A program made the position numbers and the translations under genes. The notes under the pieces were generated by a model that did no database searches, was not told where the DNA came from, and was given only the letters and a program-made list of their open reading frames with translations. This document shows, one piece after another, positions 2,147 through 26,109 of a stretch of 32,000 bases of DNA. Within the stretch, counting starts at the first letter, position 1. Each line of letters starts with the position of its first letter. This DNA comes from an uncultured archaeon (GTDB taxonomy: Archaea > Iainarchaeota > Iainarchaeia > Iainarchaeales > CSSED10-239), in the NCBI GenBank assembly GCA_964591795.1, contig CAZQEL010000004.1:1-32000 (forward strand). Direction: 5' to 3'.

Positions 2147-2374
2147 ACCAAGTGTTTTGTTCTAAAATATAGATATAAGGTTTTTGAAAACTAATATCAT
2201 AAGATGTTGTTTGAAAATGTTTTAAACAATCTTGCGAAAAGTAAAAATATGTTTTTTTATGCAATGGAAGTTATATCGGACCATATACATATGTTTATAG
2301 AAGTGCTAAAAAATCTAACTATTGATTATGTAATAAGATATTTAAAATCTCAAACAGAAGTGATTTTGTATTAA
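2147..2374 (+). pseudogene. tnpA: Decayed IS200/IS605-family tnpA (Y1/HUH transposase) relic
   Basis: One frame reads TKCFVLKYRYKVFEN*YHKMLFENVLNNLAKSKNMFFYAMEVISDHIHMFIEVLKNLTIDYVIRYLKSQTEVILY*. KYRYKVF matches KYRRKVL and EVISDHIHMFIE matches the EVMPDHVHLL HUH motif. In-frame TAA at 2192-2194. The C-terminal catalytic Tyr region is missing and the 3' end abuts the phosphomannomutase stop. Confidence 0.6.
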
Positions 2375-3705
2375 TTAACTATTATCTTACTAATCTCTTT
2401 TAGTTTCTTTTTCATTAGATCTTTAGTTCTTCCCTCTAAATTTAATCTTAAGAAAGATTCAGTATGACTTAATCTAAGATTAAACCACCAATCCTTGAAT
2501 TCAATCTTTACACCATCAATTTCTGTTATTTTTCCTCTGTAATATTTTTTCTTAAGTTTTAAAATAATTTTGTTTGAATTTTTTATATTAAAATTAATCT
2601 CTTGTGTTTTAAAATATCTTTTAAATGGTTTAATTAGTTCTGAAAGTTTATTTTTTTCTAAAAGATTAAAAATTAAAATACATGCGAATATAGGTGCTTC
2701 AGAATAAAAAAAATCAGAAAAAAAATAATGCCCACTAGTCTCCCCACCAAAAGGTGCATTAATTTTATGCATTTTTCTTTTAATAAATGAATGCCCTACT
2801 CTATGCTCTATAGGTATACCATTATTTTCTTTAATTACTTCTTTAATTACCCAACTACTTGTTAAAGTATAAAATATTTTAGAATTTGGTTTCTCTTTTA
2901 AAATATTTTTTATAAGTAAAGCGGTTATCAAATCTATAGGCACAATTTCCCCTTTTTCATCAACAAATCCAACTCTGTCAGCATCACCATCAAATGCAAT
3001 TCCTATATCTGCTTTTTTTTTAATTACTTTTTTTTGTAAATCTTTTAATGTATTTATATCTAATGGATTAGCAATATGGTTTGGATAAGTTTGATCTATT
3101 TTTTTGTAAAGATATGTTGTACTTAATGGAAGTTTACAGAATACTTTTGGAGTTATTAAGCTTCCCATTCCATTCCCGCTATCAACAACTACTTTTAATT
3201 TTTTAGATAATTTAGAATAAGATAATATTTTTTTAATATATTTTTTAGAAACATCTTTTTTATAAATTTTACCTTTTTTATTTTTTTGTTTAAATTTTTT
3301 ATTTTCAATAATTTTTTTAATTTTTTGAATATCTTTAGAAACAAAAGGAATAGCTAAATGTTTAGCTAATTTAAATCCATTATATTCTGCAGGATTGTGG
3401 GATGCAGTAATCATCACTCCACCATTTACTTTTAATGTCCCTACAGAAAAATAAAATAAAGGAGTTGTACTTAATCCAATATCAATTACATCACAACCCA
3501 TAGATGTAATTCCTTTAATTAGATATTTGAAAAGAGAAGGAGATGATTTTCTTTTATCTCTACCAACTACTACCTTCTTTGATTTTGTTAGATAAACAAA
3601 AGCCTGACCTATTTTGTAAGCTACCTTTTCATTAATCTCAGAATCACAAACTCCTCTAATATCATATGCTTTAAAAATACAATTATTAAAACTATTTTCT
3701 TCCAT
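2371..3705 (-). CDS. Phosphomannomutase/phosphoglucomutase (alpha-D-phosphohexomutase family)
   Basis: 444 aa. Active-site Ser loop TASHNPAEYNGFK, Mg site FDGDADR, sugar loop GGETSGH. Start overlaps the upstream cupin gene by 14 nt. Confidence 0.9.
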   Translation of the reverse strand: MEENSFNNCIFKAYDIRGVCDSEINEKVAYKIGQAFVYLTKSKKVVVGRDKRKSSPSLFKYLIKGITSMGCDVIDIGLSTTPLFYFSVGTLKVNGGVMITASHNPAEYNGFKLAKHLAIPFVSKDIQKIKKIIENKKFKQKNKKGKIYKKDVSKKYIKKILSYSKLSKKLKVVVDSGNGMGSLITPKVFCKLPLSTTYLYKKIDQTYPNHIANPLDINTLKDLQKKVIKKKADIGIAFDGDADRVGFVDEKGEIVPIDLITALLIKNILKEKPNSKIFYTLTSSWVIKEVIKENNGIPIEHRVGHSFIKRKMHKINAPFGGETSGHYFFSDFFYSEAPIFACILIFNLLEKNKLSELIKPFKRYFKTQEINFNIKNSNKIILKLKKKYYRGKITEIDGVKIEFKDWWFNLRLSHTESFLRLNLEGRTKDLMKKKLKEISKIIVN

Positions 3706-4024
3706 ACTTATCTTCTAATTTAATTTCATCTTTTTCATCAAATGTGCCAAATGATATTTCTAAAATACTAACTTTATTTTTTTCTGCAATAATTCTATGC
3801 TCTTGATTTTTTTTAATAACTATTTCAGTTCCTACTTTTACTTTTTTTTTTGATTTACCAATCTGAACTACAGCATTATCAAAAAAGTACCAGTGTTCTT
3901 CTCTTTTTTTATGTTTCTGTAAGCTAAGCTCTTGTTTAGGTTTTATTTCTAAAATTTTAACAGTACATTTTTTATTTAATACAAATGTTTTAAACAAACC
4001 CCAAGGTCTTCTTATTTTTTCCAT
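3692..4024 (-). CDS. Stand-alone cupin resembling the type II mannose-6-phosphate isomerase C-terminal domain
   Basis: 110 aa. RRPWGLF...SLQKHKKREEHWYF...EHRI...LEISFG...EDKYGRK follows the RPWG/SLQ-H-x-R-EHW/D-YGR pattern of the ManC-type PMI domain. Overlaps both neighbours. Confidence 0.65.
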   Translation of the reverse strand: MEKIRRPWGLFKTFVLNKKCTVKILEIKPKQELSLQKHKKREEHWYFFDNAVVQIGKSKKKVKVGTEIVIKKNQEHRIIAEKNKVSILEISFGTFDEKDEIKLEDKYGRK

Positions 4025-5922
4025 TTAGAACACCTACAAGCATAAAGCTTTTTTAATAATTCATTTATCTTAATTGTTGCAACTCCTATTACCTTATCTG
4101 CTGCTCCATAATAAATAAATATTTTATCTTTAATCCCAACTGCACCACACGGAAACACAACATTTCTAGTCACACCCTCTTTTTCATAACTCTCTTCAGG
4201 AACAAAAATAGGTTTATCAGTTTTTGCAATTATTTTAAATGGATCTTTTAAATCTAAAAGAACAGCACCTACATTATAACTATGATTTTTAGAGATTCCA
4301 TGATATAATAAAATCCAACCTTTCTTTGTCTTAATAGGTGGTGCTGCAACACCAACTTTTTCACAGTCCCACCATCCTTTTCTTGGTTCCATCCAATTAT
4401 TTTCTTCTAAGTAGTTTAATATATTAAAACTTAGTTTAGATCTAGCAGATAGATCAATTCCATTTTCAATTCTATGAAGAATATAGTATTTTCCATTTAT
4501 TTTTTCAGGAAATAAACATGCATCTTTATCATCTATGTTTGCTGGTGATATTAGTTTAGATTTTGACCATTTCCATTTTTTATTAATAAAATCTTCTTCC
4601 TTAATATTTGTTAATGCAATTCTTGGAAAATTAATACCATCATATGCAGTATAAAGCATATATATTTTATTTCCGATCTTAGTAATTCTAGGGTCCTCAC
4701 AACCTACTTTCTCAAAGTTTTCTCTTGGAGAATAAATGGGTTTTTTATCTCTATAATCTATTTTAATTCCATCCTTAGTTGTTGCATAACCTAAATATGA
4801 TTTATTATCTTCAGATGTAGTTCTATAAATAATATGTACTTTTTCATTAAGATAGATTGCTGCTGGATTAAATACTGCTTTTTTCTCCCATTTATTATTA
4901 GTTGACTCTAGTAATGGTTTTTTAAGAGGTCTTTTAAATGATAGTTCATCTAATTTTCCTTGTAACATCTCATCTAGTAATGAAGAAAGATCAATAAATG
5001 CTAATGAACAAACAGTGTCTGCTGCGCCATAATAAAGATGAATTTTATTATCTTTTAATAATGCACCTGATGGAAAAACAATATTTGGTACAATTCCTAT
5101 TTTTTCATAATATTCTGCAGGAATCATAATAGGCCCTTTTGTTCTTCCAATTACTTTTAGTGGATTTTTAAGATCTAGAAGAACAGCCTCAATTCCAAAT
5201 AAAGGTGTATGTGTAAAATAATTCTGTATATAAGAGTATAGTAAAAGCCACCCCTTTTTAGTTTTTATTGGTGCTGCTCCAATTTCAACATGATCCTTGT
5301 CATTTCTTTGAAGTGATAAAGAAAACTTATTACTATTCTTTTCCCAGTTTTCCCAGTATTCTTTAGACCAAATATCCTTTTCTTTATCAAAACTAGCAAA
5401 ACATATTTTTGTTGGCGGTTGATCTGTGTTATAACTAAACAAAACCCATAGTTTATTATTTATTTTTTCTGGGAAAAGAGTCATTGCTTTTGCATTAAAT
5501 GTAGTAACAATATGTTTTTCATTAATCTTTTTAAGATCTTTACTAATTGCTACTGCAACTTTAATTCCTTCTGCTGAAAAAGGAAAAGTAGATAGTGCTG
5601 TATAAAAAATATAATACTTATCTTCAATCTTAGTAATCCTAGGGTCCTCACAACCAAATTTTTCCCAATCATTCTCTGGATAAATAAATTGTTTTCTTTT
5701 ACTAAAATTAATTCCGTCTTTACTTTCAGTAATTCCAATTATTGATTGTTCCATTGTTTTATCTGCAAAATTATGATAAAAATTAGAAGATATTGCCCTA
5801 TAAACTAAATAAATTTTATTATCTTTTTTAACTGGTGAACAATTAAAAACAGCTGTTGTTTCCCAATATTTCTTAATATTTGGTTTTAATATTGGATTTT
5901 TCTTATATCTTTCAACTATCAT
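4012..5922 (-). CDS. Tandem GH130-GH130 fusion protein (beta-mannoside phosphorylase/glycosidase family, two complete modules)
   Basis: Module 1: AVFNCSPV...GCEDPRITKIEDKYYIFYTA...YYGAADTV. Module 2: AVFNPAAI...GCEDPRITKIGNKIYMLYTAY...YYGAADKV. I place the start at ATG 5922; the ORF-track start at 5931 is GTG. Approximate module borders are 4972-5922 and 4015-4896. Confidence 0.8.
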   Translation of the reverse strand: MIVERYKKNPILKPNIKKYWETTAVFNCSPVKKDNKIYLVYRAISSNFYHNFADKTMEQSIIGITESKDGINFSKRKQFIYPENDWEKFGCEDPRITKIEDKYYIFYTALSTFPFSAEGIKVAVAISKDLKKINEKHIVTTFNAKAMTLFPEKINNKLWVLFSYNTDQPPTKICFASFDKEKDIWSKEYWENWEKNSNKFSLSLQRNDKDHVEIGAAPIKTKKGWLLLYSYIQNYFTHTPLFGIEAVLLDLKNPLKVIGRTKGPIMIPAEYYEKIGIVPNIVFPSGALLKDNKIHLYYGAADTVCSLAFIDLSSLLDEMLQGKLDELSFKRPLKKPLLESTNNKWEKKAVFNPAAIYLNEKVHIIYRTTSEDNKSYLGYATTKDGIKIDYRDKKPIYSPRENFEKVGCEDPRITKIGNKIYMLYTAYDGINFPRIALTNIKEEDFINKKWKWSKSKLISPANIDDKDACLFPEKINGKYYILHRIENGIDLSARSKLSFNILNYLEENNWMEPRKGWWDCEKVGVAAPPIKTKKGWILLYHGISKNHSYNVGAVLLDLKDPFKIIAKTDKPIFVPEESYEKEGVTRNVVFPCGAVGIKDKIFIYYGAADKVIGVATIKINELLKKLYACRCSKWKK

Positions 5923-5927
5923 ATTAT

Positions 5928-7031
5928 TCACTTAACTTTTCTTTTTAAAATCTCTGTTTTAAGTTTCTTCTTTTTTCCTTCTTTTAATGCTTTTAAAAAT
6001 TTATTTAGATTGGTGTGTGCTACACAAACATAGTTGTCAGCTCCACCATAGTATATAATTAATCTACCATCTTTGACTATGGCACCAGAGGCATAAACAA
6101 TACCAGGTTTACTACCATACATTTCATAGTCACCCTCAGGTTCAAGTATTGGTTGCTTTGATCTACAGATTACTTTCTCTGGGTTCTTAATATCTAAAAG
6201 CATAGCTCCTACCTTGTACTTCCAGTTTTCTCTATAGTCATTAGCATGATAAAGAACTAACCAACCATCTTTTGTTTTAATTGGTGGTGGACCAGAACCT
6301 CTTAGATTTGAATCCCATCTTCTTTTATTTGTTTTTCCTATAAATTTACTATTAATATACTCTCCTTTCTTAAAATCTAAACTATCAACATAAGCAATTA
6401 ATATTTTTGGATTTATACTATGAAGAATTGCATATTTATTATTTATTTTTTCAGGAAATATTACCCAGTTTTTATGAACTTCATTTGGGGGAGATATTAG
6501 TCTTGCTTTTGACCAATTCCATCTCTCATTAAGAAAATCATTTAGTTTTATTGATGAAATACCCATTCTTAATCCACTATCACATGCAGTATAAGTTAAA
6601 TATAATTTATTTTCATTACCAACACGCACTATTCTTGGATCCTCACAACCACCCCAGCTTCCGCCAGATGCAAATGAATAGTATTTATAAGGTTCAGATA
6701 CTGTTAAGTGTTGATAGACAGCATAAGGTAGTCTTCTATTTATTTTAAAGCCATCATAAGAATTAGCATAACCAAGACTAGATAACCAGTTATCTCCAAT
6801 TGCTCTGTAAAGAAAATGAATTTTATTTTTAATAAGAATAGCAGCCGGATTAAAGGTCTGCCATGCTTCCCAACTATTTTCTGGATTGGGTGATATAATT
6901 AGTTTATCAATTGATCTCTTTAAACATAATTCTGGTTTTCTAATATCTTTTAATATAGTTTTTGATTTTTTAGAAATAGATTTTTTTGTAGTACCTCTAA
7001 TAACTGTTTTAGACTTACTATTAGGAATCAT
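5928..7031 (-). CDS. GH130 family protein (single module) with basic N-terminal extension
   Basis: QTFNPAAI...GCEDPRIVRVG...LYLTYTA...YYGGADNYV. ATG at 7031 is preceded by GGAGGT 7 nt upstream; the ORF-track start at 7046 is TTG inside that SD region. No signal peptide or TM segment. Confidence 0.8.
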   Translation of the reverse strand: MIPNSKSKTVIRGTTKKSISKKSKTILKDIRKPELCLKRSIDKLIISPNPENSWEAWQTFNPAAILIKNKIHFLYRAIGDNWLSSLGYANSYDGFKINRRLPYAVYQHLTVSEPYKYYSFASGGSWGGCEDPRIVRVGNENKLYLTYTACDSGLRMGISSIKLNDFLNERWNWSKARLISPPNEVHKNWVIFPEKINNKYAILHSINPKILIAYVDSLDFKKGEYINSKFIGKTNKRRWDSNLRGSGPPPIKTKDGWLVLYHANDYRENWKYKVGAMLLDIKNPEKVICRSKQPILEPEGDYEMYGSKPGIVYASGAIVKDGRLIIYYGGADNYVCVAHTNLNKFLKALKEGKKKKLKTEILKRKVK

Positions 7032-7112
7032 ATTAATTACCTCCAAAACTCCTTATATATTATTAAAAATATAGTTATATAATATATCAAAACATTTTTA
7101 TATAATTGTTTA

Positions 7113-7673
7113 TTATTCAAGATTTGCATGTTTTTTGCCTAAATCCTTCTCTTTTATGTTTAGTTTATTCATTAGCATTATAATTAGAGAATCAAGATAA
7201 ACAAGACTTGATTGCTCAAATAAGGTTCCAAGAGGTTCAATGGATTTTTTATTATATTCTTTTTTAGTTTTTGCATTAATCTCAATAAATAAATCAATAT
7301 ATTTAAATTCTTCTTTTTCTTTTTGTGTTTTCTTACTAGTAATTAATACTATTTTTCCACCATTCTTCTTTGCTTTTTTAATTAGTATATTTGTAATTTT
7401 TGTTTTTCCTGAACCAGATATTGCAATTAGTAGATTCCCTTTTGAGATTGATGGTGTTATACTATCACCTATATGGTATGTTTCAATACCTAATTGCATA
7501 AGTCTCATTGCAAAGCTTTCTGATATTAGACCACTTCTTCCTTGTCCAGTTACAAACAAAGTTTTTGATTTGATTAATAGATTAATAAATAATTCTGTCT
7601 TTTTTTGGTTTATTGTTTTAAAAGAATCTTTTAGTTCTTTTAGTATTTTTTTAATAATATTATCTATTTTCAT
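7113..7673 (-). CDS. phi: 6-phospho-3-hexuloisomerase (SIS domain)
   Basis: 186 aa. FVTGQGRSGLISESFAMRLMQLG...AISGSGKT is a typical PHI/SIS pattern. Overlaps the hps 3' end by 14 nt. Confidence 0.8.
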   Translation of the reverse strand: MKIDNIIKKILKELKDSFKTINQKKTELFINLLIKSKTLFVTGQGRSGLISESFAMRLMQLGIETYHIGDSITPSISKGNLLIAISGSGKTKITNILIKKAKKNGGKIVLITSKKTQKEKEEFKYIDLFIEINAKTKKEYNKKSIEPLGTLFEQSSLVYLDSLIIMLMNKLNIKEKDLGKKHANLE

Positions 7674-8298
7674 ATTTTTTCATAATTCTTTTTAATTCTT
7701 TAACAACTTTAAGAGGATTTTTTGCTTTTGTTATTGCTCCTCCAACAATTATAATTCCTGGTTTATATTTAGCAATATCTTCTATTGTTTCGATATTTAT
7801 ACCACCAGCAACTGCAATTTTTTTACTATCAATAACTTTTGATAGTTCTTTAAGTGTTTTTAAAGGTTTAATACCTTTCATCTGCATATCAATTCCTGAA
7901 TGTATTGCTATATAATTTGGTTTTTCTTTAATAATCTGTAATGCAGCTTTTTTGACATCCTTTCTCCCAATTAAATCAACAACTGATTTTTTTTTATAAT
8001 CTTTTGCAGCTTTTATAGTTCCTTTAATTGTACCTTCATAAGATGTAGCACAAACAGTACTATAATCAGCTCCAAACTTAAAAGCTAATTCTGCTTCAAA
8101 ATATCCTGTGTCCATTGTTTTTAAATCTGTAAGAATTGGTATTTTAAATTTTTTAAAATCTTTAATTAATTCTTTCATTCCAAATATCTTAATAAATGGT
8201 GTTCCTAGTTCAATAATATCAATATAATATTTTATTTTTTCACATAGCTCTAAAGCTTTTTTCTTATCTGTAACATCTAAGGCTAGTTGTAATTTCAT
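7660..8298 (-). CDS. hps: 3-hexulose-6-phosphate synthase (OMP-decarboxylase-fold family)
   Basis: 212 aa. MKLQLALD...IDIIELGTPFIK...DLKTMDTGYFE...VAGGI...IIVGGAIT follows the HPS consensus throughout. Confidence 0.85.
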   Translation of the reverse strand: MKLQLALDVTDKKKALELCEKIKYYIDIIELGTPFIKIFGMKELIKDFKKFKIPILTDLKTMDTGYFEAELAFKFGADYSTVCATSYEGTIKGTIKAAKDYKKKSVVDLIGRKDVKKAALQIIKEKPNYIAIHSGIDMQMKGIKPLKTLKELSKVIDSKKIAVAGGINIETIEDIAKYKPGIIIVGGAITKAKNPLKVVKELKRIMKKYENR

Positions 8299-8305
8299 AA
8301 ATTTA

Positions 8306-8746
8306 TCACCAATCTAATTTTTCTATTCTTCTTATATATTTTTTTTTCTTAATCTGTTTACAATCTATCCATACTTTAATTAATTCTTTTGCTTGATTGT
8401 AAATTAATGATTTTCCTGGAAGCGTAATGATGTTTGCATTTAAATGCTTTTTAGCATGTTGTGCAGTTGCTTTATTCCAGCATAGTACAGCTCTAATTCC
8501 TTTATATCTATTTGCTTGTACACTCATTCCCTGTCCAGTTCCACAAATAAGAATACCTTTATTGTTTTTATTTTTTTTTATTTTTGTAACTACTTTCTTT
8601 GCATAATCATTGTAATCATCATTTTTTTCATATTTATAAGGTCCAATATCCTCAAACTCTAGTTTTTGCTGTAAAAAGTATTTTTTAATTTTTTCTTTAA
8701 GATCAAATCCTGCATGGTCACTTCCAATAATAAAAAATTTTTTCAT
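8306..8746 (-). CDS. rpiB: Ribose-5-phosphate isomerase B (RpiB/LacAB family)
   Basis: 146 aa. IGSDHAGFDLKEKI...GILICGTGQGMSVQANRYKGIRA. ATGA start/stop overlap with prs at 8743-8746. Confidence 0.85.
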   Translation of the reverse strand: MKKFFIIGSDHAGFDLKEKIKKYFLQQKLEFEDIGPYKYEKNDDYNDYAKKVVTKIKKNKNNKGILICGTGQGMSVQANRYKGIRAVLCWNKATAQHAKKHLNANIITLPGKSLIYNQAKELIKVWIDCKQIKKKKYIRRIEKLDW

Positions 8747-9633
8747 ATTTTACACTTTATAGTTTTTACAAGTTCATCAGTAATATCTATTTTTTCTGCT
8801 TTGTTTTCTAATGTATTTGTTGAAATTATTTTGCCATACTTCTTAAGCTTATTTAGTGATCCTTCAGCAAACACACCGTGTATTCCAATTATATATGTTT
8901 TATGTGGTTTATATTTTTGTAATTGTTTTAGATTTTCTATCATTGTGTGTCCTGTGCTTATAATATCATCTATGATTATTAGATCTTTTCCTTTAATGTT
9001 TACATTTTTTGGTAAACTAATAGATACTTTTCTTGCGCTCTGTCTTTCTTTTAAAGCAATTACTGGTTTTTTCTTAAATGCTTTTGCTACATTTACTACC
9101 CATTGTAGACTTTCCATATCTGGGCCTACAAATATTGGATCTTTTAATTTTTGTTTTTTAAGATATTTGATAATTGATTGATCTAATGTAATATTTACTC
9201 CATTTCTTAAAGCATTTTTTATATTTTTAATTCTATGAAGATGAGGATCTACACAAAATATTTTATCACACTCTTTAAATAATTCATTCATTACTTTTAT
9301 TGAAACACACTCTCTTTTTCTAAATCTTTTATCAGATCTAAAATATGGAAAATATGGTGCAATAAGATATATTTTTTTTGCTTTAAGATCTTTTGCTGTA
9401 TAAATAGAAAATAAAGTTTCAATAATTTTATCATTTAATGTTAATTCTTTTGTATTTTGAAAGTTTTGAACTAAAAATACAATTTTGTTTTTAATACTGT
9501 TTGTAAATTGAATATCAAACTCACCATCTGGAAATTTAATTGATTTTAATTTTGAAAAAGGTTGTTTCATTTTTTTTGCTATTTTTTTACCTATCTTTTC
9601 AGATCCAAAACAAGCTATAATTATACTTATCAC
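8743..9633 (-). CDS. prs: Ribose-phosphate pyrophosphokinase (PRPP synthase)
   Basis: 296 aa. FPDGEFDIQF near the N-terminus and the PRPP loop DLIIIDDIISTGHT. The start codon at 9633 is GTG, with no nearby in-frame ATG. Confidence 0.85.
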   Translation of the reverse strand: MISIIIACFGSEKIGKKIAKKMKQPFSKLKSIKFPDGEFDIQFTNSIKNKIVFLVQNFQNTKELTLNDKIIETLFSIYTAKDLKAKKIYLIAPYFPYFRSDKRFRKRECVSIKVMNELFKECDKIFCVDPHLHRIKNIKNALRNGVNITLDQSIIKYLKKQKLKDPIFVGPDMESLQWVVNVAKAFKKKPVIALKERQSARKVSISLPKNVNIKGKDLIIIDDIISTGHTMIENLKQLQKYKPHKTYIIGIHGVFAEGSLNKLKKYGKIISTNTLENKAEKIDITDELVKTIKCKI

Positions 9634-10111
9634 CTTTTATAATGTATATTATTTTATACCCTTATATACTACCAAAGGTTTTTTAAAATATTGTATAGTA
9701 AGTCACAATTTATAAGATATATAGAATAAATTAGATTAAAAAATAATATATTTGATGTCTATAAATCAATTTTAAATATAAAAATATTTTAATAGAAGTT
9801 AAATATAATTAAAAATTTAAATATAAGCAAAAAGAACTGTTTGATTCCTTAAAAATTAAATAATTACTAATAGTATAATTTTTTTAAGTTAAATGAGTAT
9901 TTTTTACTTTTGATTCAACTCCCCAAAAGCTTATAAAAAATAATAAAAAGAAGAAAAGAAAATAGAACTAATAGAAGAAGATATATTAAATCAAATACAT
10001 TTTACTTTATTATAAGATTTACAAAAAATGATTAATGAACTTAATTTTAAAAATAAAATAAAAGAAGATTGGATTAATGCATTTAATAGAGTGGGTTTTA
10101 TAACAAATAAT

Positions 10112-10636
10112 CTAAATTTTGTTTGAGGTTAACTTTGTATTTATAATTCCATCATTAAGTCTTTTTATGTTTCTTAAAATATCTTTCTGAAATGTTTTAT
10201 AAAGTGAGTTTGTTCTAATAAGATACTTCATATACTCTTTAAGTCTATCAGTTTGAATTAAAAATACATTTTTAGAAGATATAAATGCTAATTTTACTTT
10301 TAAAATATCTTTTTTGAATTGAAGTTAATTTAATTTAGAGTAACTTGGAATTAGTTTATCTCCATAAAATCTGAAAAAATTATAAACTAAACAAGAGCTT
10401 ACTTTTAAAATTTGCTTGTTAATTTCAAAAATAAATGCAGGGGTTATATAAGAATTTCTTTTTAGGATTATTTTTAAATAATTAAAAGAATTAAGACTTT
10501 TTCTTTTTTAAACAAAAAATAAGTTTGTGCAAGAGCAACTTTTTCTTTAGTTGTGTTTATTAATAAATTATGTGAATATAAATCTTTTACTGAAGATAAC
10601 TTTTTTTTAATAATATTGATTTTTGATTTAAACATA
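10112..10636 (-). pseudogene. Decayed ORF of unknown function (one frameshift in an A-run plus one in-frame TAA)
   Basis: ATG at 10636 gives MFKSKINIIKKKLSSVKDLYSHNLLINTTKEKVALAQTYFLFKKEK, then stops. A 1-nt shift in the TTTAAAAAAGAAAAAG run continues as SLNSFNYLKIILKRNSYITPAFIFEINKQILKVSSCLVYNFFRFYGDKLIPSYSKLN*LQFKKDILKVKLAFISSKNVFLIQTDRLKEYMKYLIRTNSLYKTFQKDILRNIKRLNDGIINTKLTSNKI*. Confidence 0.4.
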
Positions 10637-10674
10637 CGTGCTCAAATATCTAATATTTAAACTTATTTAAAAAG

Positions 10675-12159: not shown

Positions 12160-13296
12160 TTATAATTCAATAAATTCATTTTTTTCTTTTGAAAGACTTT
12201 TTTGTAATGACTCTCTTTCAAGAGAATTTATATCTTTAATTTTTTTCTTAAGATCGCTGTTTAATTTTTCTGGAACATAAGCAGAAACTTTAACAAAAAG
12301 ATCTCCATAGGCATATCTTCTATTAATTACAGGTACACCATGATCTTTTAATTTAAAAGTAGTGTTATTTTTTGTTCCAGATGGAATTTTTAATTTAATT
12401 TTTTCTTTAAATCTATTTATTTTAATACTTGTACCTAACACTAAATCAGAATATGCTATTGATACTTCACAATAAAGATCAAAACCTTTTCTTTTAAAAA
12501 AACTATGCTCCTTTACTGAAATATTTAAAAATAAATCTCCTTTATGTGGTGTATGGTTATGCCCTTGTTCTCTTAATCTAATTACATCCCCATTATTAAC
12601 ACCTTGAGGTATTTCTACATTCAATGTTTTTTTACCCTTAACATATCCTTTAGCAGAACATTTTTGACAAGGATCTTTTATAACATATCCTTTTCCTCTA
12701 CAGGTAGAACATAAGTTTTCAACAGCAAACATTCCAAAAGGAGTTCTTTTTGTACTAGTTGTTCTCCCACGTCCATTACAGGTAGAACAAATATCTTTTT
12801 GCATATTAATAGAACCTGTTCCTGCACAATGACTACATTCAATATCTTTATAAAATTCAATTTTTTCTTTACCACCAAGTACGGCCATATCTAATGGAAT
12901 TTCTAAATTATAAACAAGATTTAAATCTTCTTGAGATTCTCTTCTTTGTCCTCTACCTCTTCCAGAAAACTGAGAAAAGAAACCACCACCATCATCATCA
13001 TCTGAAAACGAATTAAAAATATCTGAAAAGTCAAAACCTCCAAAACCCGAAAATCCACCTTGTCCAGCTCCACCAGAAAAAGCATCGTGGCCATAGGAAT
13101 CATATTGTTTTCTTTTATCAGAATCAGATAGTATTGAATAAGCGTTACTTATTTCTTTAAACTTTTCTGCATCAGCAGATGCTCCCGCTAAATCTGGATG
13201 ATGTTTTTTAGCAAGTTGTTTATATGCTTTTTTTATATCACCAATAGATGCATCCTTTGATACACCTAGAATTGAATAGTAATCTTTATCTTTCAT
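12160..13296 (-). CDS. dnaJ: Chaperone DnaJ (Hsp40, type I)
   Basis: J domain DYYSILGV...HHPD, G/F-rich linker, and a zinc-finger region with four CxxC-type motifs (CSHCAGTG, CSTCNGRG, CSTCRGKG, CQKCSAKG). Confidence 0.95.
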   Translation of the reverse strand: MKDKDYYSILGVSKDASIGDIKKAYKQLAKKHHPDLAGASADAEKFKEISNAYSILSDSDKRKQYDSYGHDAFSGGAGQGGFSGFGGFDFSDIFNSFSDDDDGGGFFSQFSGRGRGQRRESQEDLNLVYNLEIPLDMAVLGGKEKIEFYKDIECSHCAGTGSINMQKDICSTCNGRGRTTSTKRTPFGMFAVENLCSTCRGKGYVIKDPCQKCSAKGYVKGKKTLNVEIPQGVNNGDVIRLREQGHNHTPHKGDLFLNISVKEHSFFKRKGFDLYCEVSIAYSDLVLGTSIKINRFKEKIKLKIPSGTKNNTTFKLKDHGVPVINRRYAYGDLFVKVSAYVPEKLNSDLKKKIKDINSLERESLQKSLSKEKNEFIEL

Positions 13297-13330
13297 AAAT
13301 ATTCACAAAAAAAGAAAAAAAAAGAAAAAA

Positions 13331-15205
13331 TCATTTCTTTTCTTCAGTCTTATTATCTTTTTCTTCTGAAAAATCAGCATCAACAGTTTTAGTACCATCT
13401 TCATTTTCAGTAGTTTCTTTTTTTTGAGCAGCTTTTTCTGAAGATGCTTTTTCTGAAGATGCTTTTTCTGAAGATGCTTTTTTATAAACCTTTGATGAAA
13501 TATCATAAAGTTTCTTTTGTAAGGTTTCAGTCTTTTCAGAAAGATCACTTGCTTTTTCATCAATTGATTTTTGAAGATTTTCTTTTAAGGTTTCAAGTTC
13601 TTTTAAGTCAGCAGCATCAAGCTTATCTTTATTTTCCTTAATTAAACTTTCAACACTATAAATTAATGTTTCAGCCTTATTTTTTACTTCAATACCTTCT
13701 TTTACTTTTTTATCTTCTTCAGCATTATCTTTTGCTTCTTTTCTCATTCTTTCAATATCTGCTTCTGAAAGATTTGTTGTTGCAGTAATTTTAATTTCTT
13801 GTTTTTTACCAGTTCCAAGATCTTTAGCTGAAACATTTAAAATTCCATTTGCATCTATATCAAAAGCAACTTCAATTTGTGGAACTCCTCTTGCAGCAGG
13901 CAAAATACCAATAAGTTGGAATCTACCAAGTGGATTATTATCCTTTGCAAGTGGTCTTTCACCTTGTAAAATATTAATATCAACTGCAGTTTGATTATCT
14001 GCTGCTGTTGAAAAAATTTGTGCTTTTTTAGTAGGGATTGTTGTATTTTTTTCAATTAATTTTGTAAACACACCACCAAGGGTTTCAATACCTAAAGATA
14101 ATGGAGTAACATCTAAAAGTAAAATATCCTTAACATCACCAGCTAAAACACCACCTTGTATTGCAGCACCCATAGCTACAACTTCATCAGGATTAATAGA
14201 TTTATTAGCTTTTTTATTTGTTAATTTTTCAACAATATCAACTATTTTTGGAATTCTAGTTGAACCACCAACTAATATTAATTCATCTATCTTAGATATA
14301 TCTAATTTTGAATCTGCAATTGCATTTTTAACAGGAGTTTCAACTCTTTTAAAAAGATCTACACATAATTCTTCAAACTTAGCTCTTGTAAGCTCTGTGT
14401 TTAGATGTTTAGGGCCTACATTAGTTGCAGTTATATATGGAATATTAATTGTTGTTTTAACTGTTTGAGATAATTCTATTTTTGCTTTTTCAGCTTCGTC
14501 TTTAAGTCTTTGTAAAGCCATTTTATCAGAGGTTAAATCAATACCTTCTTTTTGTTTAAAATCCTTTACTAAATAATCAATTATTTTTTGATCAAAGTCA
14601 TCTCCACCTAAATGATTATCACCACTAGTAGATTTAACTTCAAAAATACCATCATCAAGTTCAAGGATAGAAACATCAAAAGTACCTCCACCAAGATCAA
14701 ATACTAAAACTGTATGTGCATGTTTCTTTTCAAGACCATAGGCTAAAGCAGCTGCTGTAGGTTCATTAATTATTCTTAAAACTTCTAAACCTGCAATTTT
14801 ACCTGCATCCTTAGTTGCTTTTCTTTGTGCATCTGTAAAATATGCTGGAACTGTTATAACTGCCTTAGATACTTTTTGACCAATTGCATCTTCTGCATCT
14901 TTTTTTAATTTTTGTAAAATCATTGCAGAAATTTCTTCAGGAGTATATTGTTTATCACCTAAAGTTACTTTATCAGAAGTACCCATTTTTCTTTTAATTG
15001 AATAAATTGTATTTAAGTGATTTGCAACCGCTTGTCTTTTTGCTAAAGAACCAACAATTATTTGATCATTAGCTAAAGCTACAACTGAGGGTGTTGTTCT
15101 TCCACCTTCTGAGTTAATTAAAATTTCTGGTTTACCTGCTTCCATTATTGAAACAGCAGAGTTTGTAGTTCCTAAATCAATTCCGATTATTTTTTCTTGT
15201 GCCAT
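13331..15205 (-). CDS. dnaK: Chaperone DnaK (Hsp70)
   Basis: [28 protein letters not shown] and the rest of the Hsp70 consensus. GGAGG lies 8 nt upstream of the ATG, inside the grpE 3' end. Confidence 0.97.
13431..13475. repeat. Perfect 3 x 15-bp tandem repeat inside the dnaK 3' end (encodes ASSEK x3)
   Basis: gctttttctgaagat occurs three times back to back, followed by a partial fourth unit. It translates on the minus strand to [17 protein letters not shown]. Confidence 0.9.
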
Positions 15206-15208
15206 AAA

Positions 15209-15766
15209 TTATTCCTCCAAAATACCAATTATTACTTTTCCTGGCTTTATTATTTTATCATTATATGTATATGTATTTTCTAAAACATTTAATATTTTAT
15301 TATGTTTTTTTTTTTCATTAACTTTTATTGTTTGAGTACATTCTGCTAAGTTAAAATCAAACTCAGTATCTTTTAAGTTTATTTTTTTAATATTAAGCCT
15401 TGCTAAAATATTTGAATAGTTATCATTAAGAACAATTAAATTATTCTTAGCTGATTTATTTTCTTCATGATTAATTGCTTTTTCTAAAACATCTTTAAAA
15501 TTTAAAAATTCTAAAATTATTTTTGAACTTTTTTGAAATACAGTATTTTCAGTATCCTTAATAATTCTCTGTTTTGAATTAATGAAATCTGCAACTGTTC
15601 TTTTTAGTTGATCCTCTAAATTATTAATTTTATCTAAAAGTTCTTTTTCATTAGGAGTATCACTTACATCTGATTTTTCATCAATATCAGACACATTAGT
15701 ATCAATTGAATCTAAATTATCTAAACCAGTGACCTCATCTATATTTTCTGTGTTGTTTAATGCCAT
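15209..15766 (-). CDS. grpE: Nucleotide exchange factor GrpE
   Basis: 185 aa with an acidic N-terminus, a coiled-coil-like middle and a C-terminal beta region. It sits immediately upstream of dnaK-dnaJ, with a 3-nt gap to dnaK. GAGGT is 5 nt upstream of the ATG. The sequence match itself is weak. Confidence 0.7.
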   Translation of the reverse strand: MALNNTENIDEVTGLDNLDSIDTNVSDIDEKSDVSDTPNEKELLDKINNLEDQLKRTVADFINSKQRIIKDTENTVFQKSSKIILEFLNFKDVLEKAINHEENKSAKNNLIVLNDNYSNILARLNIKKINLKDTEFDFNLAECTQTIKVNEKKKHNKILNVLENTYTYNDKIIKPGKVIIGILEE

Positions 15767-17948: not shown

Positions 17949-18446
17949 CTATTTTTCAATAATGATTTGTTTTACACTAATTGGTTTTTTATCAACAAAA
18001 CTTTTTGAAAGATTTAGTATGATAATTGAATTTAATTTTGGTTTTTTAAAACATTTTAATATATATTCTTTTTTTGTTTTGAAAAAAGGATCTGTTATTT
18101 TAACTGTAATTGTTGTAGCTAAACTTTTAATAACTACTCCAAAAGTTGTGTTAAATAAAACCTTATACAAATAAAGGTATAATATCACAGCACACATAAA
18201 GAACACTAAAAAATATATATGTGTAATATATTGTGCTAAAATAAACAAAAATAAAATACTAGTAAATCCAATACCCACATACTTATATTTTGCACGATTG
18301 TAAGTAAAAGCATCTAGTTCTTTTATAAAAAATAAGAAAGTAAGTAATAAAAATAATATTTTTAAAGTTAGCATATCAGGGACAAATAAGTTTAAAATAA
18401 CCGCTACTAAAAAAATTAATTCTAAGTAAATTAAATGTTTATTCAT
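17949..18446 (-). CDS. Membrane protein (3-4 TM helices) with small C-terminal soluble domain, unknown function
   Basis: ATG at 18446 (the ORF-track start at 18455 is TTG), 10 nt after the preceding pilin-like gene. C-terminal TTFGVVIKSLATTITVKITDPFF... looks like a small beta domain. Confidence 0.4.
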   Translation of the reverse strand: MNKHLIYLELIFLVAVILNLFVPDMLTLKILFLLLTFLFFIKELDAFTYNRAKYKYVGIGFTSILFLFILAQYITHIYFLVFFMCAVILYLYLYKVLFNTTFGVVIKSLATTITVKITDPFFKTKKEYILKCFKKPKLNSIIILNLSKSFVDKKPISVKQIIIEK

Positions 18447-18456
18447 AATTATCAAA

Positions 18457-18813
18457 TTAAATACATTTCAATAAAATAGACACATCTGTAAATTTAGTTT
18501 TATTTTCAAGTAAACTTTCAAGTCTACTATAATTATAATCTGTAGCTAACGGGCAAGTAGAATATGCAACTTTTTGGAAAGTAACAGTTACAATTAAGGT
18601 TGTTGCTGTAAGATTGTAAGTAATATTATTAATTGTAATTAAATCTTGATTTGTAGTAATAAAATTTAAAGACTGGTTTTTAGTTTCATAAATCGCATAA
18701 TTTACATCAAACGTAGCGGTTAAAAATAAAGTTACAGCTGCAGCAAGAAGTATTAAAACCATAACAATAGTTAAAAATTCTAAACTAGTTTGTCCATTAT
18801 GGTCTTGAAACAT
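18457..18813 (-). CDS. Class III signal-peptide (type IV pilin-like) protein, minor-pilin candidate
   Basis: MFQDHNG|QTSLEFLTIVMVLILLAAAV has the G|Q-x-S-L-E-F motif plus a hydrophobic helix. The pre-cleavage segment is unusually short and lacks Lys/Arg. 17-nt overlap with the upstream gene. Confidence 0.6.
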   Translation of the reverse strand: MFQDHNGQTSLEFLTIVMVLILLAAAVTLFLTATFDVNYAIYETKNQSLNFITTNQDLITINNITYNLTATTLIVTVTFQKVAYSTCPLATDYNYSRLESLLENKTKFTDVSILLKCI

Positions 18814-19273
18814 CTAAATCCCCTGTATTAGATTTTATGATTTGTAAATATCCATTAAATCCAGGTCCTATTGCTTCACAGGTTATATCTGCATCTGAAA
18901 CAAATAATGGTAAATTAAAAGTACATAAGTTAGTATTACGATCACACGCAGAAATATTTGGTTTAGGTTCTTGATTTGAAATTAAAATTGTATATTTTAA
19001 TTTTTTAGTAATATTATCACACTCAACTATTTGTGCAGTATCTGGTAAATATAAGTAAATTGTTCTAGCTCCGTATCCAGGAGTACTTGCAAAGGTTGAA
19101 ACATCATTAACAAATTTATCCATACTTTGCTTTGTCTGAGTAATTCCATAAACATCTTTAAGCACATTTTCTGAAAAATTAATATTTGGATATACTATGG
19201 CTTGAAAAAATAATAATAATATAGCTAAAAATAAAATATATTCAATTGCAATTTGTCCTTTAATATTTATCAT
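18797..19273 (-). CDS. Class III signal-peptide (type IV pilin-like) protein with 4 Cys
   Basis: MINIKG|QIAIEYILFLAILLLFF. 158 aa. Cys residues in VECDN, ISACDRNTNLCTF and ITCEA. Confidence 0.65.
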   Translation of the reverse strand: MINIKGQIAIEYILFLAILLLFFQAIVYPNINFSENVLKDVYGITQTKQSMDKFVNDVSTFASTPGYGARTIYLYLPDTAQIVECDNITKKLKYTILISNQEPKPNISACDRNTNLCTFNLPLFVSDADITCEAIGPGFNGYLQIIKSNTGDLDVSRP

Positions 19274-19289
19274 TTAATCACATCTTTAT

Positions 19290-20411
19290 TTAAAATAACA
19301 ACCATATAAAATCCCCTAAAATATTTAAAAGGATATATGCACACAAAACAGAAGGTGTAAATGGAATTGTCTTTTTTAAAATGATTTCTGTTTCTAAATT
19401 ATGGTTGTAAGAACTCTTTAAAAAGGTTATGTCTTTTAAAGAAAGTCCTCCAATTTTCCTAGAATCCACTATGAGATTAGTGTGATAGGTATTATTTATT
19501 ATCATTTTTAGATAGGTTATAAAAGAAATTTTTTTAACAACTAATTTAGAATTAACTAAATAATAACAATTTACAGGAACATCTCCGTCTTTTAATTGAG
19601 CTAATGTTTTGGTGGTAGCTAAAATTTTAGTAGATATAATTTGATACATAGTAATTGCTAAAAACAAAATAATAATTGTTAACAATATAGAAATAAAATC
19701 TTTTAAATAAAATATTTGAGCAGTAACAAAGAATGAAATTATTAATAAAAACACATAAAACAAACTTATTAAATAGTAATAATATCTCAAACTATATTTT
19801 TCAACTTGTTTAAAAAATAATATAAATAAAATGGATAATATGAAATACAATACCAGTGGTACGTTTAAAGAAAAAATATTAAAGAAAGAACTTATTAAAT
19901 ATAAAACCAAAATAGAACTAATTAACGATAAAATAGTATTTTTGGTTTTTAATAAATTCCATAAAATAAGATAATGCTTTTTAAATATAAACAAATAAAA
20001 AGAATTAATTAATAAAACTGGAGCAGTTGCTAAAACACTTACAAGGATTAATGTGATTCCAAATATTGGTGCCTTAATAGTTCCAAAAGTAAATATCCAG
20101 TTTATAAAATTAATATTTACTGGATTTAACATAGATATTGCAGCAAATAATTTTAAGTCGCCACCAGCAAAAAAACCTACTTCCCAAAATATATAAGAAA
20201 CTACCAAAGTAATTACAAAACCTAACAAAGCATTTAAAAAAATACTACTCTGATGTAAGATGATTGCTTCTAAAACTTTAGTAATTAAACCAATTATAAA
20301 TAATAAAAGAACTAATTTATTTGGAATAATTCTTTTTTTAATATCAAAAAAACTAGCAAAAATTAAAAATAAGATTGTTATTAAAAATATAAAAAGAGTA
20401 AAATTAAACAT
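19290..20411 (-). CDS. Archaeal A24-family prepilin/preflagellin peptidase, enlarged (EppA/FlaK-like)
   Basis: First catalytic Asp in FFDIKKRIIPN and second in FAGGDLKLF (GxGD-type). The family C-terminal motif TIPFTPSV lies about 260 aa further on, after extra TM helices and a soluble segment of about 85 aa. Confidence 0.8.
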   Translation of the reverse strand: MFNFTLFIFLITILFLIFASFFDIKKRIIPNKLVLLLFIIGLITKVLEAIILHQSSIFLNALLGFVITLVVSYIFWEVGFFAGGDLKLFAAISMLNPVNINFINWIFTFGTIKAPIFGITLILVSVLATAPVLLINSFYLFIFKKHYLILWNLLKTKNTILSLISSILVLYLISSFFNIFSLNVPLVLYFILSILFILFFKQVEKYSLRYYYYLISLFYVFLLIISFFVTAQIFYLKDFISILLTIIILFLAITMYQIISTKILATTKTLAQLKDGDVPVNCYYLVNSKLVVKKISFITYLKMIINNTYHTNLIVDSRKIGGLSLKDITFLKSSYNHNLETEIILKKTIPFTPSVLCAYILLNILGDFIWLLF

Positions 20412-20436
20412 ATATTTTCCAGAAAAACTTATTTAA

Positions 20437-20628
20437 CTATAAAGAAGCCAAGATATTATCTCTATAGGTTAATATTTTAGATTTAGCAACTGTAATAAAA
20501 CTATTCAAATTTAAAATTACAATACCAGTTGTGATTACAAGAATCATACCAAAAACAATCATTACTAAATATTCAACAGACACTTGACCTTTTTGATCAA
20601 CAATAATTGATTGTATTTTAGATATCAT
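20437..20628 (-). CDS. Very short class III signal-peptide pilin (Flp-sized; mature about 49 aa)
   Basis: MISKIQSIIVDQKG|QVSVEYLVMIVFGMILVITTGIVIL, then a 20-aa tail. Confidence 0.65.
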   Translation of the reverse strand: MISKIQSIIVDQKGQVSVEYLVMIVFGMILVITTGIVILNLNSFITVAKSKILTYRDNILASL

Positions 20629-20652
20629 AAATAATCTTATATTTTAACAAAC

Positions 20653-21108
20653 TTATCTAGCAACACAAGAAGATGCTGGTTGAGATAATTTAGAATAATT
20701 ACTATTTTTTACAAAGGCAACTGAGACTGCGTATGTTTGCCCAACTGTAGTTACCCCTAATGCGGAAGCTGATTGAGTAATAATACCTCCAACTGCAGGT
20801 AATTCAGTAAGGTTTGGAGTTCCAGAATCAACAGCGATTCTATAATAAGCATTATGTTCAGATTCAATTAAATGAATAGTCACCAAATCATTTCCAACAT
20901 CACAATCAACTGAAACTACAATGGGTGGCACTAATGCATTATCTAATAAATTGGTTAAAGTTTTATCTTGATCAAGTGCAACTTTTCTATTTGAACTACC
21001 CATACTAGTAATTAGTACAACTACAGAAATTGCAATTATAATTGCAGCTCCAATTAATAAAAGGTACTCCATAGCACCTTGCCCTTTAATCTTTTTTAAA
21101 TTAATCAT
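20653..21108 (-). CDS. Class III signal-peptide pilin, paralog of the 21203-21748 gene
   Basis: MINLKKIKG|QGAMEYLLLIGAAIIIAISVVVLITSMGSSNR. ATG at 21108 (the ORF-track start at 21117 is TTG). Beta-rich C-terminal domain with two Cys (VDCDVG, SSCVAR). Confidence 0.75.
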   Translation of the reverse strand: MINLKKIKGQGAMEYLLLIGAAIIIAISVVVLITSMGSSNRKVALDQDKTLTNLLDNALVPPIVVSVDCDVGNDLVTIHLIESEHNAYYRIAVDSGTPNLTELPAVGGIITQSASALGVTTVGQTYAVSVAFVKNSNYSKLSQPASSCVAR

Positions 21109-21117
21109 AAATATCAA

Positions 21118-21191
21118 TTATAATTTTTTATAAATAAAAATAAAAATAAAAAAATATAATTTAAAATATAGCCGTTAAGCTATATTTTAAA
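21118..21191 (-). terminator. Hairpin plus T-rich tract just downstream of the 181-aa pilin gene
   Basis: Perfect 13-bp inverted repeat tttaaaatatagc / gctatattttaaa (21160-21172 and 21179-21191) with a 6-nt loop, 11 nt after the stop. On the minus strand it is followed by ttatatttttttatttttattttt. Confidence 0.45.
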
Positions 21192-21202
21192 ATACATTAA
21201 AC

Positions 21203-22074: not shown

Positions 22075-22075
22075 T

Positions 22076-22978: not shown

Positions 22979-22981
22979 AAA

Positions 22982-24127: not shown

Positions 24128-24186
24128 ATTTAACTTTTATTTATTTATTTACTGTTATTATATGTGCCTAAAGTATATTTAAATAT

Positions 24187-26100: not shown

Positions 26101-26109
26101 AAAATTCAC

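Follow-up and report, generated by a model that had tools for sequence, protein, structure and literature searches.

Thermococcus kodakarensis exemplifies pentose synthesis in archaea by the reverse ribulose monophosphate (RuMP) route, with 3-hexulose-6-phosphate synthase (HPS) and 6-phospho-3-hexuloisomerase (PHI). Archaea without an oxidative pentose phosphate pathway are described as making ribulose 5-phosphate (Ru5P) from fructose 6-phosphate (Fru6P) with this pair (Kato, Yurimoto and Thauer 2006; Soderberg 2005; both as cited in PMC8407392), and a 2021 survey of DPANN archaea reported HxlA/HxlB in Altiarchaeota only (PMC8407392). A separate literature concerns glycoside hydrolase family GH130, whose beta-1,2-mannoside phosphorylases have been proposed to provide, by phosphorolysis to mannose 1-phosphate, an ATP-sparing entry into central or nucleotide-sugar metabolism in Thermoanaerobacter (PMC4264767). 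Dual phosphorylase/transferase behavior is known for beta-1,2 GH130 enzymes and for family GT108 (PMC12814180, PMC10913872), and one genome paper on the Candidate Phyla Radiation (CPR) mentions two intracellular GH130 enzymes without comment (PMC7143001). Both sets of enzymes meet in the 32,000-nt stretch analyzed here (the window; contig CAZQEL010000004.1, positions 1-32,000 of the forward strand, assembly GCA_964591795.1), where eight minus-strand open reading frames (ORFs) at 2371-9633 encode an HPS/PHI-based pentose pathway followed by GH130 proteins and two mannose phosphate enzymes.

On balance, the evidence leans towards a composite operon, in which a core leading from Fru6P to phosphoribosyl pyrophosphate (PRPP) is joined to a feeder cassette for beta-1,2-mannosides. 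The host is an archaeon, as indicated by the replication factor C small subunit, RtcB, class III signal-peptide proteins and type IV pilus apparatus encoded in the window (G+C ∼25%). Close relatives of the window proteins are labelled "archaeon" or "Candidatus Diapherotrites archaeon", and the latter label places the host in DPANN. The cluster consists of the following features, from its first gene to its last.

8743..9633, minus strand: prs, ribose-phosphate diphosphokinase (ribose 5-phosphate to PRPP); TIGR01251, Pribosyltran_N and Pribosyltran domains; GTG start
8306..8746, minus strand: rpiB, ribose-5-phosphate isomerase B; PF02502, NF004051
7660..8298, minus strand: hps, 3-hexulose-6-phosphate synthase; TIGR03128
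7113..7673, minus strand: phi, 6-phospho-3-hexuloisomerase; TIGR03127
7032..7112, minus strand: conserved spacer between phi and the first GH130 gene, a candidate internal promoter or regulator site with a ribosome-binding site; alignment of five loci
5928..7031, minus strand: single-module GH130 protein; phosphate site remodelled, N-terminal tail rich in Lys/Ser/Thr; PF04041
4012..5922, minus strand: fused GH130-GH130 protein; PF04041 in two stretches
4957..5922, minus strand: N-terminal module of the fused protein (N-module), without a phosphate site and hydrolase-like by residue comparison
4036..4944, minus strand: C-terminal module of the fused protein (C-module), with a canonical beta-1,2-mannoside phosphorylase site by residues and fold match
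3692..4024, minus strand: stand-alone cupin, type II mannose-6-phosphate isomerase (PMI)-like; PF01050
2371..3705, minus strand: phosphomannomutase/phosphoglucomutase (PMM/PGM; alpha-D-phosphohexomutase); four PGM_PMM domains

A preliminary description of the window had proposed eight coupled minus-strand coding sequences with these families and with listed junctions, and it stands in these respects: all eight ORFs are present with sensible start codons, every overlap and gap matches the ORF coordinates exactly, and Pfam and NCBIfam uphold all eight family assignments. The prs and rpiB genes overlap by the 4 nt ATGA (8743-8746), rpiB and hps are 7 nt apart, and hps and phi overlap by 14 nt (7660-7673). 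After the longest internal gap, the 81 nt at 7032-7112, the two GH130 genes are separated by 5 nt, the fused gene overlaps the cupin gene by 13 nt (4012-4024), and the cupin gene overlaps the mutase gene by 14 nt (3692-3705). Internal junctions thus span at most 81 nt, whereas the non-coding DNA bordering the cluster measures 1,041 nt on the prs side (upstream) and 437 nt on the mutase side (downstream). The prs GTG start lies inside AGGTGAT and is kept in relatives. The single-module GH130 gene starts at the ATG at 7031, with GGAGG 8 nt upstream (a TTG at 7046 would lengthen the ORF), and the fused gene also starts at an ATG (a GTG at 5931 would lengthen it).

The gene order is conserved. When a profile of the fused GH130 protein was run against a genome set with a single representative per species, 80 loci were obtained, on which the eight window proteins were placed by tblastn. 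The full order prs-rpiB-hps-phi-GH130-GH130x2-PMI-PMM was found in two other archaeal metagenome-assembled genomes (L005 and L007), and the GH130 genes, PMI and PMM were found on a short contig (L006). A metagenome scan with HPS returned close relatives only, with the whole cluster on every contig of sufficient length (L085, L086, L087 and L089). Amino acid identity to the window across L005, L007, L085, L086, L087 and L089 is 56-79% (76-79% for HPS), and these loci fall into three recurrence groups: L005/L086/L087, L007/L089 and L085. None of the genes that flank the cluster in the window (RtcB, DnaJ, DnaK, GrpE and others) lies beside it in the relatives' loci, and neither a transporter nor ManC was seen beside it there. 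Because upstream flanks are shared by L005/L087 and L007, roughly three independent contexts remain: the window, that group, and L085. Conservation in relatives, on which the preliminary description had made its reading depend, is thus borne out in at least three other archaeal lineages with differing flanks. Recurrence of the order in other lineages indicates more than chance, and the eight-gene cluster is a real, conserved unit within a clade. In L085, a transposase-like ORF (L085:77-670) lies directly upstream of prs, which raises the possibility that this copy of the cluster was mobilized.

The strongest support for the mannoside genes feeding the PRPP route comes from sister DPANN genomes, in which other genes occupy the same position. 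Seven neighborhoods were sampled among HPS homologues of 48-62% identity in other DPANN genomes. In five of the seven (the P0131 locus, L093, L094, L096 and L098), prs-rpi-hps-phi is followed by phosphoglucose isomerase (PGI) and a ROK kinase; the PGI belongs to either the SIS or the cupin type. RpiA takes the place of RpiB in L096, which supports the ribose-5-phosphate isomerase function of rpiB in the window. The sixth neighborhood (L095) has the four-gene core alone, and the seventh (L097) has hps-phi amid purine-synthesis genes. As in these relatives, prs is the first gene of the core. The presence of PGI and ROK after phi marks this slot as the position of a hexose-to-Fru6P feeder. The prs-rpi-hps-phi genes are therefore a conserved Fru6P-to-PRPP core, the slot after phi is repeatedly filled by Fru6P-making enzymes, and the window cluster is a variant of this more general core-plus-feeder design.

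Other variations on the glucose theme were seen among these relatives. In the 358-aa protein P0176, a cupin-type glucose-6-phosphate isomerase (PF06560) is naturally fused to HPS; two enzymes of the glucose-to-PRPP route are thereby joined, and the intervening PHI step lies outside the fusion. An HAD gene resembling sucrose-6-phosphate phosphatase and a gene of the invertase family GH100 (L098:5601-7662) lie convergent to the glucose-type operon of L098 and hint at a further source of sugar.

The seam between core and cassette is where a different explanation has to be weighed. Two independent operons, prs-rpiB-hps-phi for pentose and PRPP supply and GH130-GH130x2-PMI-PMM for mannoside use in glycolysis or glycan synthesis, might simply lie side by side, each with its own promoter and with no metabolic coupling, their adjacency inherited within a young clade. 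The 81-nt gap is located exactly at this seam. When the spacers of five loci in four lineages are aligned, TTTTGAT and TATAT stand out as invariant blocks and the ATG is preceded by TTTGG(A/G)G, in an AT-rich stretch of 60-80 nt (81 nt in the window), while the flanking proteins are only ∼60% identical. Such non-coding conservation at this level of protein identity suggests that the spacer is functional, and an internal promoter or regulator site would be the simplest explanation of its motifs. A scan for bacterial sigma-70 promoters gave 69 sites where 69.5 were expected; it is uninformative, as the sigma-70 and terminator models are bacterial and the host is archaeal. Separate operons are also consistent with GH130 loci that lack RuMP genes (most of 84), with RuMP cores that lack GH130 in the sister genomes, and with the upstream flanks shared by L005/L087 and L007, from which some of the recurrence reflects common descent. 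However, adjacency and order are kept at 56-79% amino acid identity in three different flanking contexts (the window, the L005/L007 group and L085), no more than 60-80 nt, with a ribosome-binding site at their end, separate the two halves, and random juxtaposition does not predict other Fru6P producers in the same slot in five of seven sister cases. Uncoupled neighboring operons are improbable on this evidence.

The four enzymes of the core are assigned by family models. Prs scores 206 bits on TIGR01251 (cutoff 113), RpiB scores 151 bits on PF02502 and 153 on NF004051 (cutoff 135), HPS scores 210 bits on TIGR03128 (cutoff 200, equivalog-domain) and PHI scores 180 bits on TIGR03127 (cutoff 160, equivalog-domain). 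Curated cutoffs are thus exceeded by Prs and, on subfamily models, by HPS, PHI and RpiB.

Two enzymes would link mannose 1-phosphate (Man1P) to this core. The cupin scores 61 bits on PF01050 (cutoff 23.6) and aligns with the C-terminal PMI domain of TIGR01479 (bifunctional GMP/PMI); against the PDB, it gave only a spurious designed-repeat match and weak generic cupins. In the mutase, the motifs TASHNP (residue 100), DGDADR (239), GETSGH (321) and RLSHTES (411) form the catalytic, metal, sugar and phosphate loops. It falls below the NCBIfam equivalog cutoffs (420 versus 618), and its substrate preference is probably that of the PMM/PGM subgroup: its best PDB matches are Pseudomonas aeruginosa PMM/PGM (259 bits) and the archaeal PH0923 (200 bits), compared with at most 129 bits for GlmM. 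A GlmM-like mutase, which the preliminary description had named (as glucosamine specific) among the results that would count against its pathway, is rejected on this twofold difference in score.

The GH130 proteins carry the clue to the substrate. PF04041 matches the fused protein (636 aa) at 378 bits and the single-module protein at 165 bits, and together with the five-bladed beta-propeller fold of the predicted model it places them in CAZy family GH130. Diagnostic residues were taken from Li et al. 2020 (PMC7660257) and Cuskin et al. 2015 (PMC4599007), and the modules were aligned to Teth514_1788. In enzymes that act on beta-1,2 linkages, the +1-subsite positions of Y103 and R150 are occupied by Glu and Lys, respectively (PMC7660257, PMC4599007), and beta-1,2 phosphorylases (GH130_6-like, EC 2.4.1.339/340) bind phosphate with R168 and H231 (Li et al. 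2020, PMC7660257). The proton-donor Asp and the acceptor Arg and Asp are retained by each of the three modules in every aligned sequence. The proton donor (Uhgb_MP D104 position, motif EDPR) is D93 and D410 in the fused protein and D131 in the single-module protein, and is kept in 85/85, 85/85 and 81/81 modules, respectively. Both +1-subsite marks are also present in all three modules and in every aligned homologue. These Glu and Lys residues predict beta-1,2-mannosides, so that beta-1,4-mannobiose and Man-beta-1,4-GlcNAc, offered as example substrates in the preliminary description, are unlikely. A beta-1,4-mannan or N-glycan is likewise rejected as the likeliest substrate, because the subsite has Glu/Lys and not Tyr/Arg.

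The modules differ in their phosphate sites, and the search for phosphate ligands that the preliminary description had recommended gives a split result: the set is complete in the C-module and not in the other two. The C-module (R367, E409-D410, K466, H483-R484, K522, H541, D609) alone has the phosphate-binding pair of a beta-1,2-mannoside phosphorylase, with R484 and H541 as the R168 and H231 equivalents. The full signature of Li et al. 2020 (the catalytic Asp, R168, H231, R59, Glu, Lys and D304) is present in it in 85/85 loci. Its best structural match is Teth514_1788 (template modelling (TM) score 0.90, root-mean-square deviation 2.1 Å, 42% identity), and the best PDB matches are GH130 structures, each of which spans one module only. 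The AlphaFold model of the fused protein is confident (pLDDT 94.1, pTM 0.91), which implies that the two modeled propellers would hold a fixed arrangement.

The N-module keeps R42, E92-D93, K145 and D302 in 85/85 loci, but R168 is replaced by Ser163, H231 by Ser230 and R242 by His211. Across the family, the first two positions hold Thr/Ser/Ala and Ser/Ala/Cys, respectively, and never Arg or His; the third basic position is His or Gln, and Glu213, two residues later, is invariant (85/85). In beta-1,2-mannosidases of the BT3780 type, the basic phosphate ligands are lost and the carboxylates E227 and E268 act as base (PMC4599007). Judged by its residues, the N-module resembles this hydrolase pattern, with all three basic phosphate ligands lost. 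Its scores of 199 bits on the phosphorylase model and 101 on the BT3780 model (NF058598, cutoff 550) suggest that it arose within the phosphorylase lineage. The single-module protein (R76, E130-D131, K187, H262, D332) has a third arrangement, with Ser205 at the R168 position and Leu243 followed by Arg244 at the R242 position. In its family the R168 position is Ser in 55/81, Asn in 13/81 and Arg in 7/81, the Arg is displaced by one position in 71/81, and H262 is kept in 71/81.

None of the four proteins checked has a hydrophobic N-terminal segment, in agreement with the earlier report that the GH130 proteins lack signal peptides. This rules out export and indicates that the enzymes are cytoplasmic. 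The single-module protein begins with a low-complexity tail rich in Lys, Ser, Thr and Glu (window 6927-7031), which is ∼35 aa long in the window versus ∼130-150 aa in relatives (L007:8537-8923; L085:3328-3723).

The GH130 proteins have a distribution far wider than that of the eight-gene cluster. Relatives of the fused protein form >7,000 database clusters at E ≤ 1e-10 and occur in at least 588 species genomes, mostly CPR/Patescibacteria and some DPANN, at ∼50-65% identity. In virtually all of ∼85 loci, the fused gene has a single-module gene as its immediate upstream neighbor. In P0013 (1110 aa) and P0052 (996 aa), one polypeptide contains an upstream-type, an N-type and a C-type module in that order, each with its own active-site signature. 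This constant adjacency and these fusions indicate that the GH130 trio is one functional unit. In about a dozen CPR loci (L045, L046, L047, L049, L054, L062, L070, L071, L073, L074, L084), the upstream gene encodes 594-632 aa, with an extra N-terminal domain that matches GH130 weakly and lacks catalytic residues. In a neighbor-joining tree of the fused proteins, the archaeal members form one cluster nested in CPR bacterial diversity, with long branches, which tentatively suggests a single inter-domain transfer.

Neighbors of the GH130 pair were counted in 83 loci, up to 4 kb away from it. The commonest is a cupin PMI (32/83, CPR bacteria included); a PF01467 nucleotidyltransferase and/or an HAD-IIB protein is present in 26/83. 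A typical CPR operon has the order nucleotidyltransferase, HAD, cupin, single-module GH130, fused GH130. Co-directional operons with the nucleotidyltransferase and an HAD-IIB putative PMM include L044:5367-10187 and those of L055, L056, L057, L065 and L082. The two proteins are fused in two loci (L021:12221-13498 and L028), and the fused L021 copy has a eukaryotic-PMM Pfam match. The HAD-IIB protein appears to occupy the place of the window's non-orthologous alpha-phosphohexomutase. Since isomerase and mutase functions appear beside the trio in both domains by way of non-orthologous proteins, a link from Man1P through mannose 6-phosphate (Man6P) to Fru6P is supported.

These same neighborhoods suggest a tentative second reading, on the unlikely side, in which the trio, PMI and PMM would make and break an intracellular beta-1,2-mannan resembling the mannogen of Leishmania, and in this lineage the store would be drawn into PRPP. 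One or both modules lacking the phosphate-site Arg would be mannosyltransferases using nucleoside diphosphate (NDP)-mannose or Man1P as donor, the C-module would be the phosphorylase, and the substrate would be home-made. The fixed trio and its three-module fusions (P0013, P0052) fit such a cycle. Module-specific active-site variants with the catalytic Asp intact recall the specialization of GT108 paralogues as transferases or phosphorylases (PMC10913872), and all characterized beta-1,2 GH130 phosphorylases have weak GDP-mannose transferase activity (PMC12814180). The CPR nucleotidyltransferase, encoded ahead of the HAD-type putative PMM or fused to it, hints at formation of NDP-mannose. Furthermore, no transporter recurs nearby, and beta-1,2-mannans are seldom found beyond a few eukaryotes (PMC4264767). 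However, the nucleotidyltransferase is absent from the window cluster and its archaeal relatives, and in CPR it is closest to RfaE domain II at 78 bits, below the model cutoff of 181.5. A transferase role for the modules lacking the Arg is putative, and the N-module with its invariant Glu looks more hydrolase-like. Glucose-entry enzymes in the slot of the sister operons suggest an entry route rather than a store, and there is no known report of beta-1,2-mannan from CPR or DPANN. The broader proposal, that the trio with cupin PMI and phosphomannomutase (plus a sugar-1-phosphate nucleotidyltransferase in CPR) may be intracellular beta-1,2-mannan machinery, a prokaryotic counterpart of mannogen widespread in CPR and DPANN, is likewise doubtful. 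If it holds, the modules without a phosphate site would be synthase or trimming enzymes next to a phosphorylase C-module, and in this archaeal clade a mannan store would be wired directly into PRPP synthesis.

Alternatively, the cassette could run in the anabolic direction, with Fru6P converted to Man6P and Man1P, and GH130 reverse phosphorolysis building beta-1,2-mannosides, for example as a compatible solute or glycan primer; the RuMP genes would then be unrelated consumers of Fru6P. The preliminary description raised this possibility too. GH130 phosphorolysis is reversible, and Teth514_1788 makes long beta-1,2 chains from Man1P in vitro (PMC4264767). Against this, the slot is otherwise held by glucose-entry enzymes, which points to Fru6P production, and net synthesis needs an NDP-sugar step that the cluster lacks. 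Cellular phosphate is usually far above Man1P, which makes net synthesis by reverse phosphorolysis unfavorable without such a step. The anabolic direction is very improbable.

In the favored composite operon, flux would begin with the C-module, which would phosphorolyze beta-1,2-mannooligosaccharides to alpha-Man1P. The PMM/PGM-type mutase would convert this to Man6P and the cupin isomerase would convert Man6P to Fru6P. The prs-rpiB-hps-phi core, common to other DPANN lineages, would then take Fru6P by the reverse RuMP route to 3-hexulose 6-phosphate, to Ru5P plus formaldehyde, to ribose 5-phosphate and to PRPP. The attached cassette would deliver the Fru6P; that of the sister lineages, PGI plus ROK kinase, would do so from glucose. 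The N-module and the single-module protein, which keep the catalytic Asp and the mannose-binding residues and have altered phosphate sites, most likely would perform other steps on the same glycan, for instance on chains of another length, as hydrolases of the last disaccharide, or as transferases. As judged from its residues, a mannoside-to-Fru6P route is feasible through the C-module, and the other two modules would do something else.

Several observations weigh against this pathway. Across the family, a canonical phosphate site is missing from two of the three GH130 modules, and a hydrolase-like module would yield free mannose, for which the cluster has no kinase. On NF052550, the beta-1,2-mannobiose phosphorylase equivalog (cutoff 450), the C-module scores 274 bits and the N-module and single-module protein 199 each, so that none reaches the cutoff alone; the 464 bits of the whole fused protein are reached only by summing its two domains. 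No characterized close stand-alone relative or solved structure was found for the cupin. The preliminary description had cautioned that sugar transport and formaldehyde handling were missing, and rightly so: no transporter is present in the cluster or recurs beside the GH130 pair in 83 loci, and no formaldehyde-handling gene is present in the window. The feeder genes may be transcribed and regulated separately, given the conserved TATA-like blocks of the spacer. The GH130-RuMP linkage is confined to one small clade, and for most GH130 trios (84 loci) no RuMP gene lies closer than 10 kb. Fru6P is a hub metabolite, and mannose carbon need not reach PRPP specifically. Finally, neither the environment nor a host is known to supply such organisms with beta-1,2-mannan.

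The unbroken route from beta-mannoside to PRPP of the preliminary description is thus upheld in part, by the conserved cluster and the feeder slot, and weakened by the two modules without a phosphate site and by the restriction of the linkage to one small clade. Its claim of an ATP-sparing module applies to the residues freed by phosphorolysis and not beyond them. Its claim that gene order is the exact reverse of flux fails for the last four genes: this would need phi, PMI, PMM, GH130, and the actual order is phi, GH130, GH130x2, PMI, PMM.

Elsewhere in the window, the ∼1 kb upstream of prs (9634-10674; 20% G+C) has no ORF longer than 53 aa and holds three loose copies of TTAAAATATCTTT, 105-126 nt apart. 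A pseudogene in this gap is rejected, as the 286-aa ORF found upstream in relatives has no match in the window. Neither RNA genes nor known RNA families were detected in the window, and the gap has no Rfam match. A bacterial-type grpE-dnaK-dnaJ chaperone operon adjoins RtcB (12160-15766). The archaeal type IV pilus locus (19290-26109) encodes a prepilin peptidase (A24), two class III signal-peptide proteins, two T2SSF-type membrane proteins and a T2SSE ATPase, and three unannotated small ORFs lie directly upstream of it (17949-19273).

Pentose and nucleotide supply in DPANN and CPR organisms with tiny genomes is a standing question, for which the cluster provides a testable wiring diagram: a conserved Fru6P-to-PRPP operon with an exchangeable sugar-entry cassette, for glucose elsewhere and apparently for beta-1,2-mannosides here. 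The fixed GH130 trio is among the more widespread sugar-handling units of CPR and DPANN, and each module type has its own conserved active-site variant, of which one alone looks like a classical phosphorylase. This raises the questions of what the beta-1,2-mannoside is and where it originates (imported or an internal reserve), and of what the GH130 modules without a phosphate site do. Every enzyme family in the cluster is already known, and what is new is the combination of known parts. No description was found in the literature searched of an operonic link between GH130/PMI/PMM and hps-phi-rpiB-prs, of the glucose-form prs-rpi-hps-phi-PGI-ROK operon, or of the tri-modular GH130 unit in CPR and DPANN.

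Among known systems, the mannogen cycle of Leishmania (GT108 MTP1-7; PMC10913872, and Sernee et al. 2019 as cited there) shares beta-1,2-mannan chemistry and the five-bladed propeller fold with the GH130 proteins of the window. Its paralogues are specialized at the phosphate-pocket Arg into transferases or phosphorylases (PMC10913872), and GT108 structures appear among the fold matches of the fused protein at ranks 36-38. However, identity is only ∼15%, and the likeness is a tentative lead. Like the N-module, the GH130_3 beta-1,2-mannosidases BT3780 and BACOVA_03624 (PMC4599007) lack the three basic phosphate ligands and have the catalytic Asp and the beta-1,2 Lys, together with a conserved carboxylate close to where the phosphate site used to be. 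The N-module differs in having no signal peptide and in being closer to the phosphorylase lineage.

The Teth514_1788/1789 cluster of Thermoanaerobacter sp. X-514 (GH130_6; PMC4264767, PMC12814180), like the window, has adjacent beta-1,2 GH130 genes without signal peptides, and Teth514_1788 is the best match of the C-module in both sequence and structure (215 bits, TM 0.90). That cluster also includes an ABC importer, GH5, ManC and GT4 and feeds GDP-mannose, whereas the window has PMI, PMM and RuMP/PRPP genes and no importer. The window also differs in having three modules (one single, two fused), two of them with non-canonical phosphate sites, and in that its modules singly fall below the NCBIfam equivalog cutoff.

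The archaeal reverse RuMP pathway has in common with the window the HPS/PHI pair that turns Fru6P into Ru5P, and the window differs in placing separate hps and phi genes inside an operon with rpiB, prs and a sugar feeder. The hps/phi operon of this lineage extends the Altiarchaeota-only picture of PMC8407392. The prs-rpi-hps-phi-PGI-ROK operon differs from the window in that its feeder, a glucose kinase plus PGI, uses one ATP per hexose and in that its gene order is the exact reverse of flux. It shares with the window the same four-gene core, in the same order and tightly spaced, followed by Fru6P producers.

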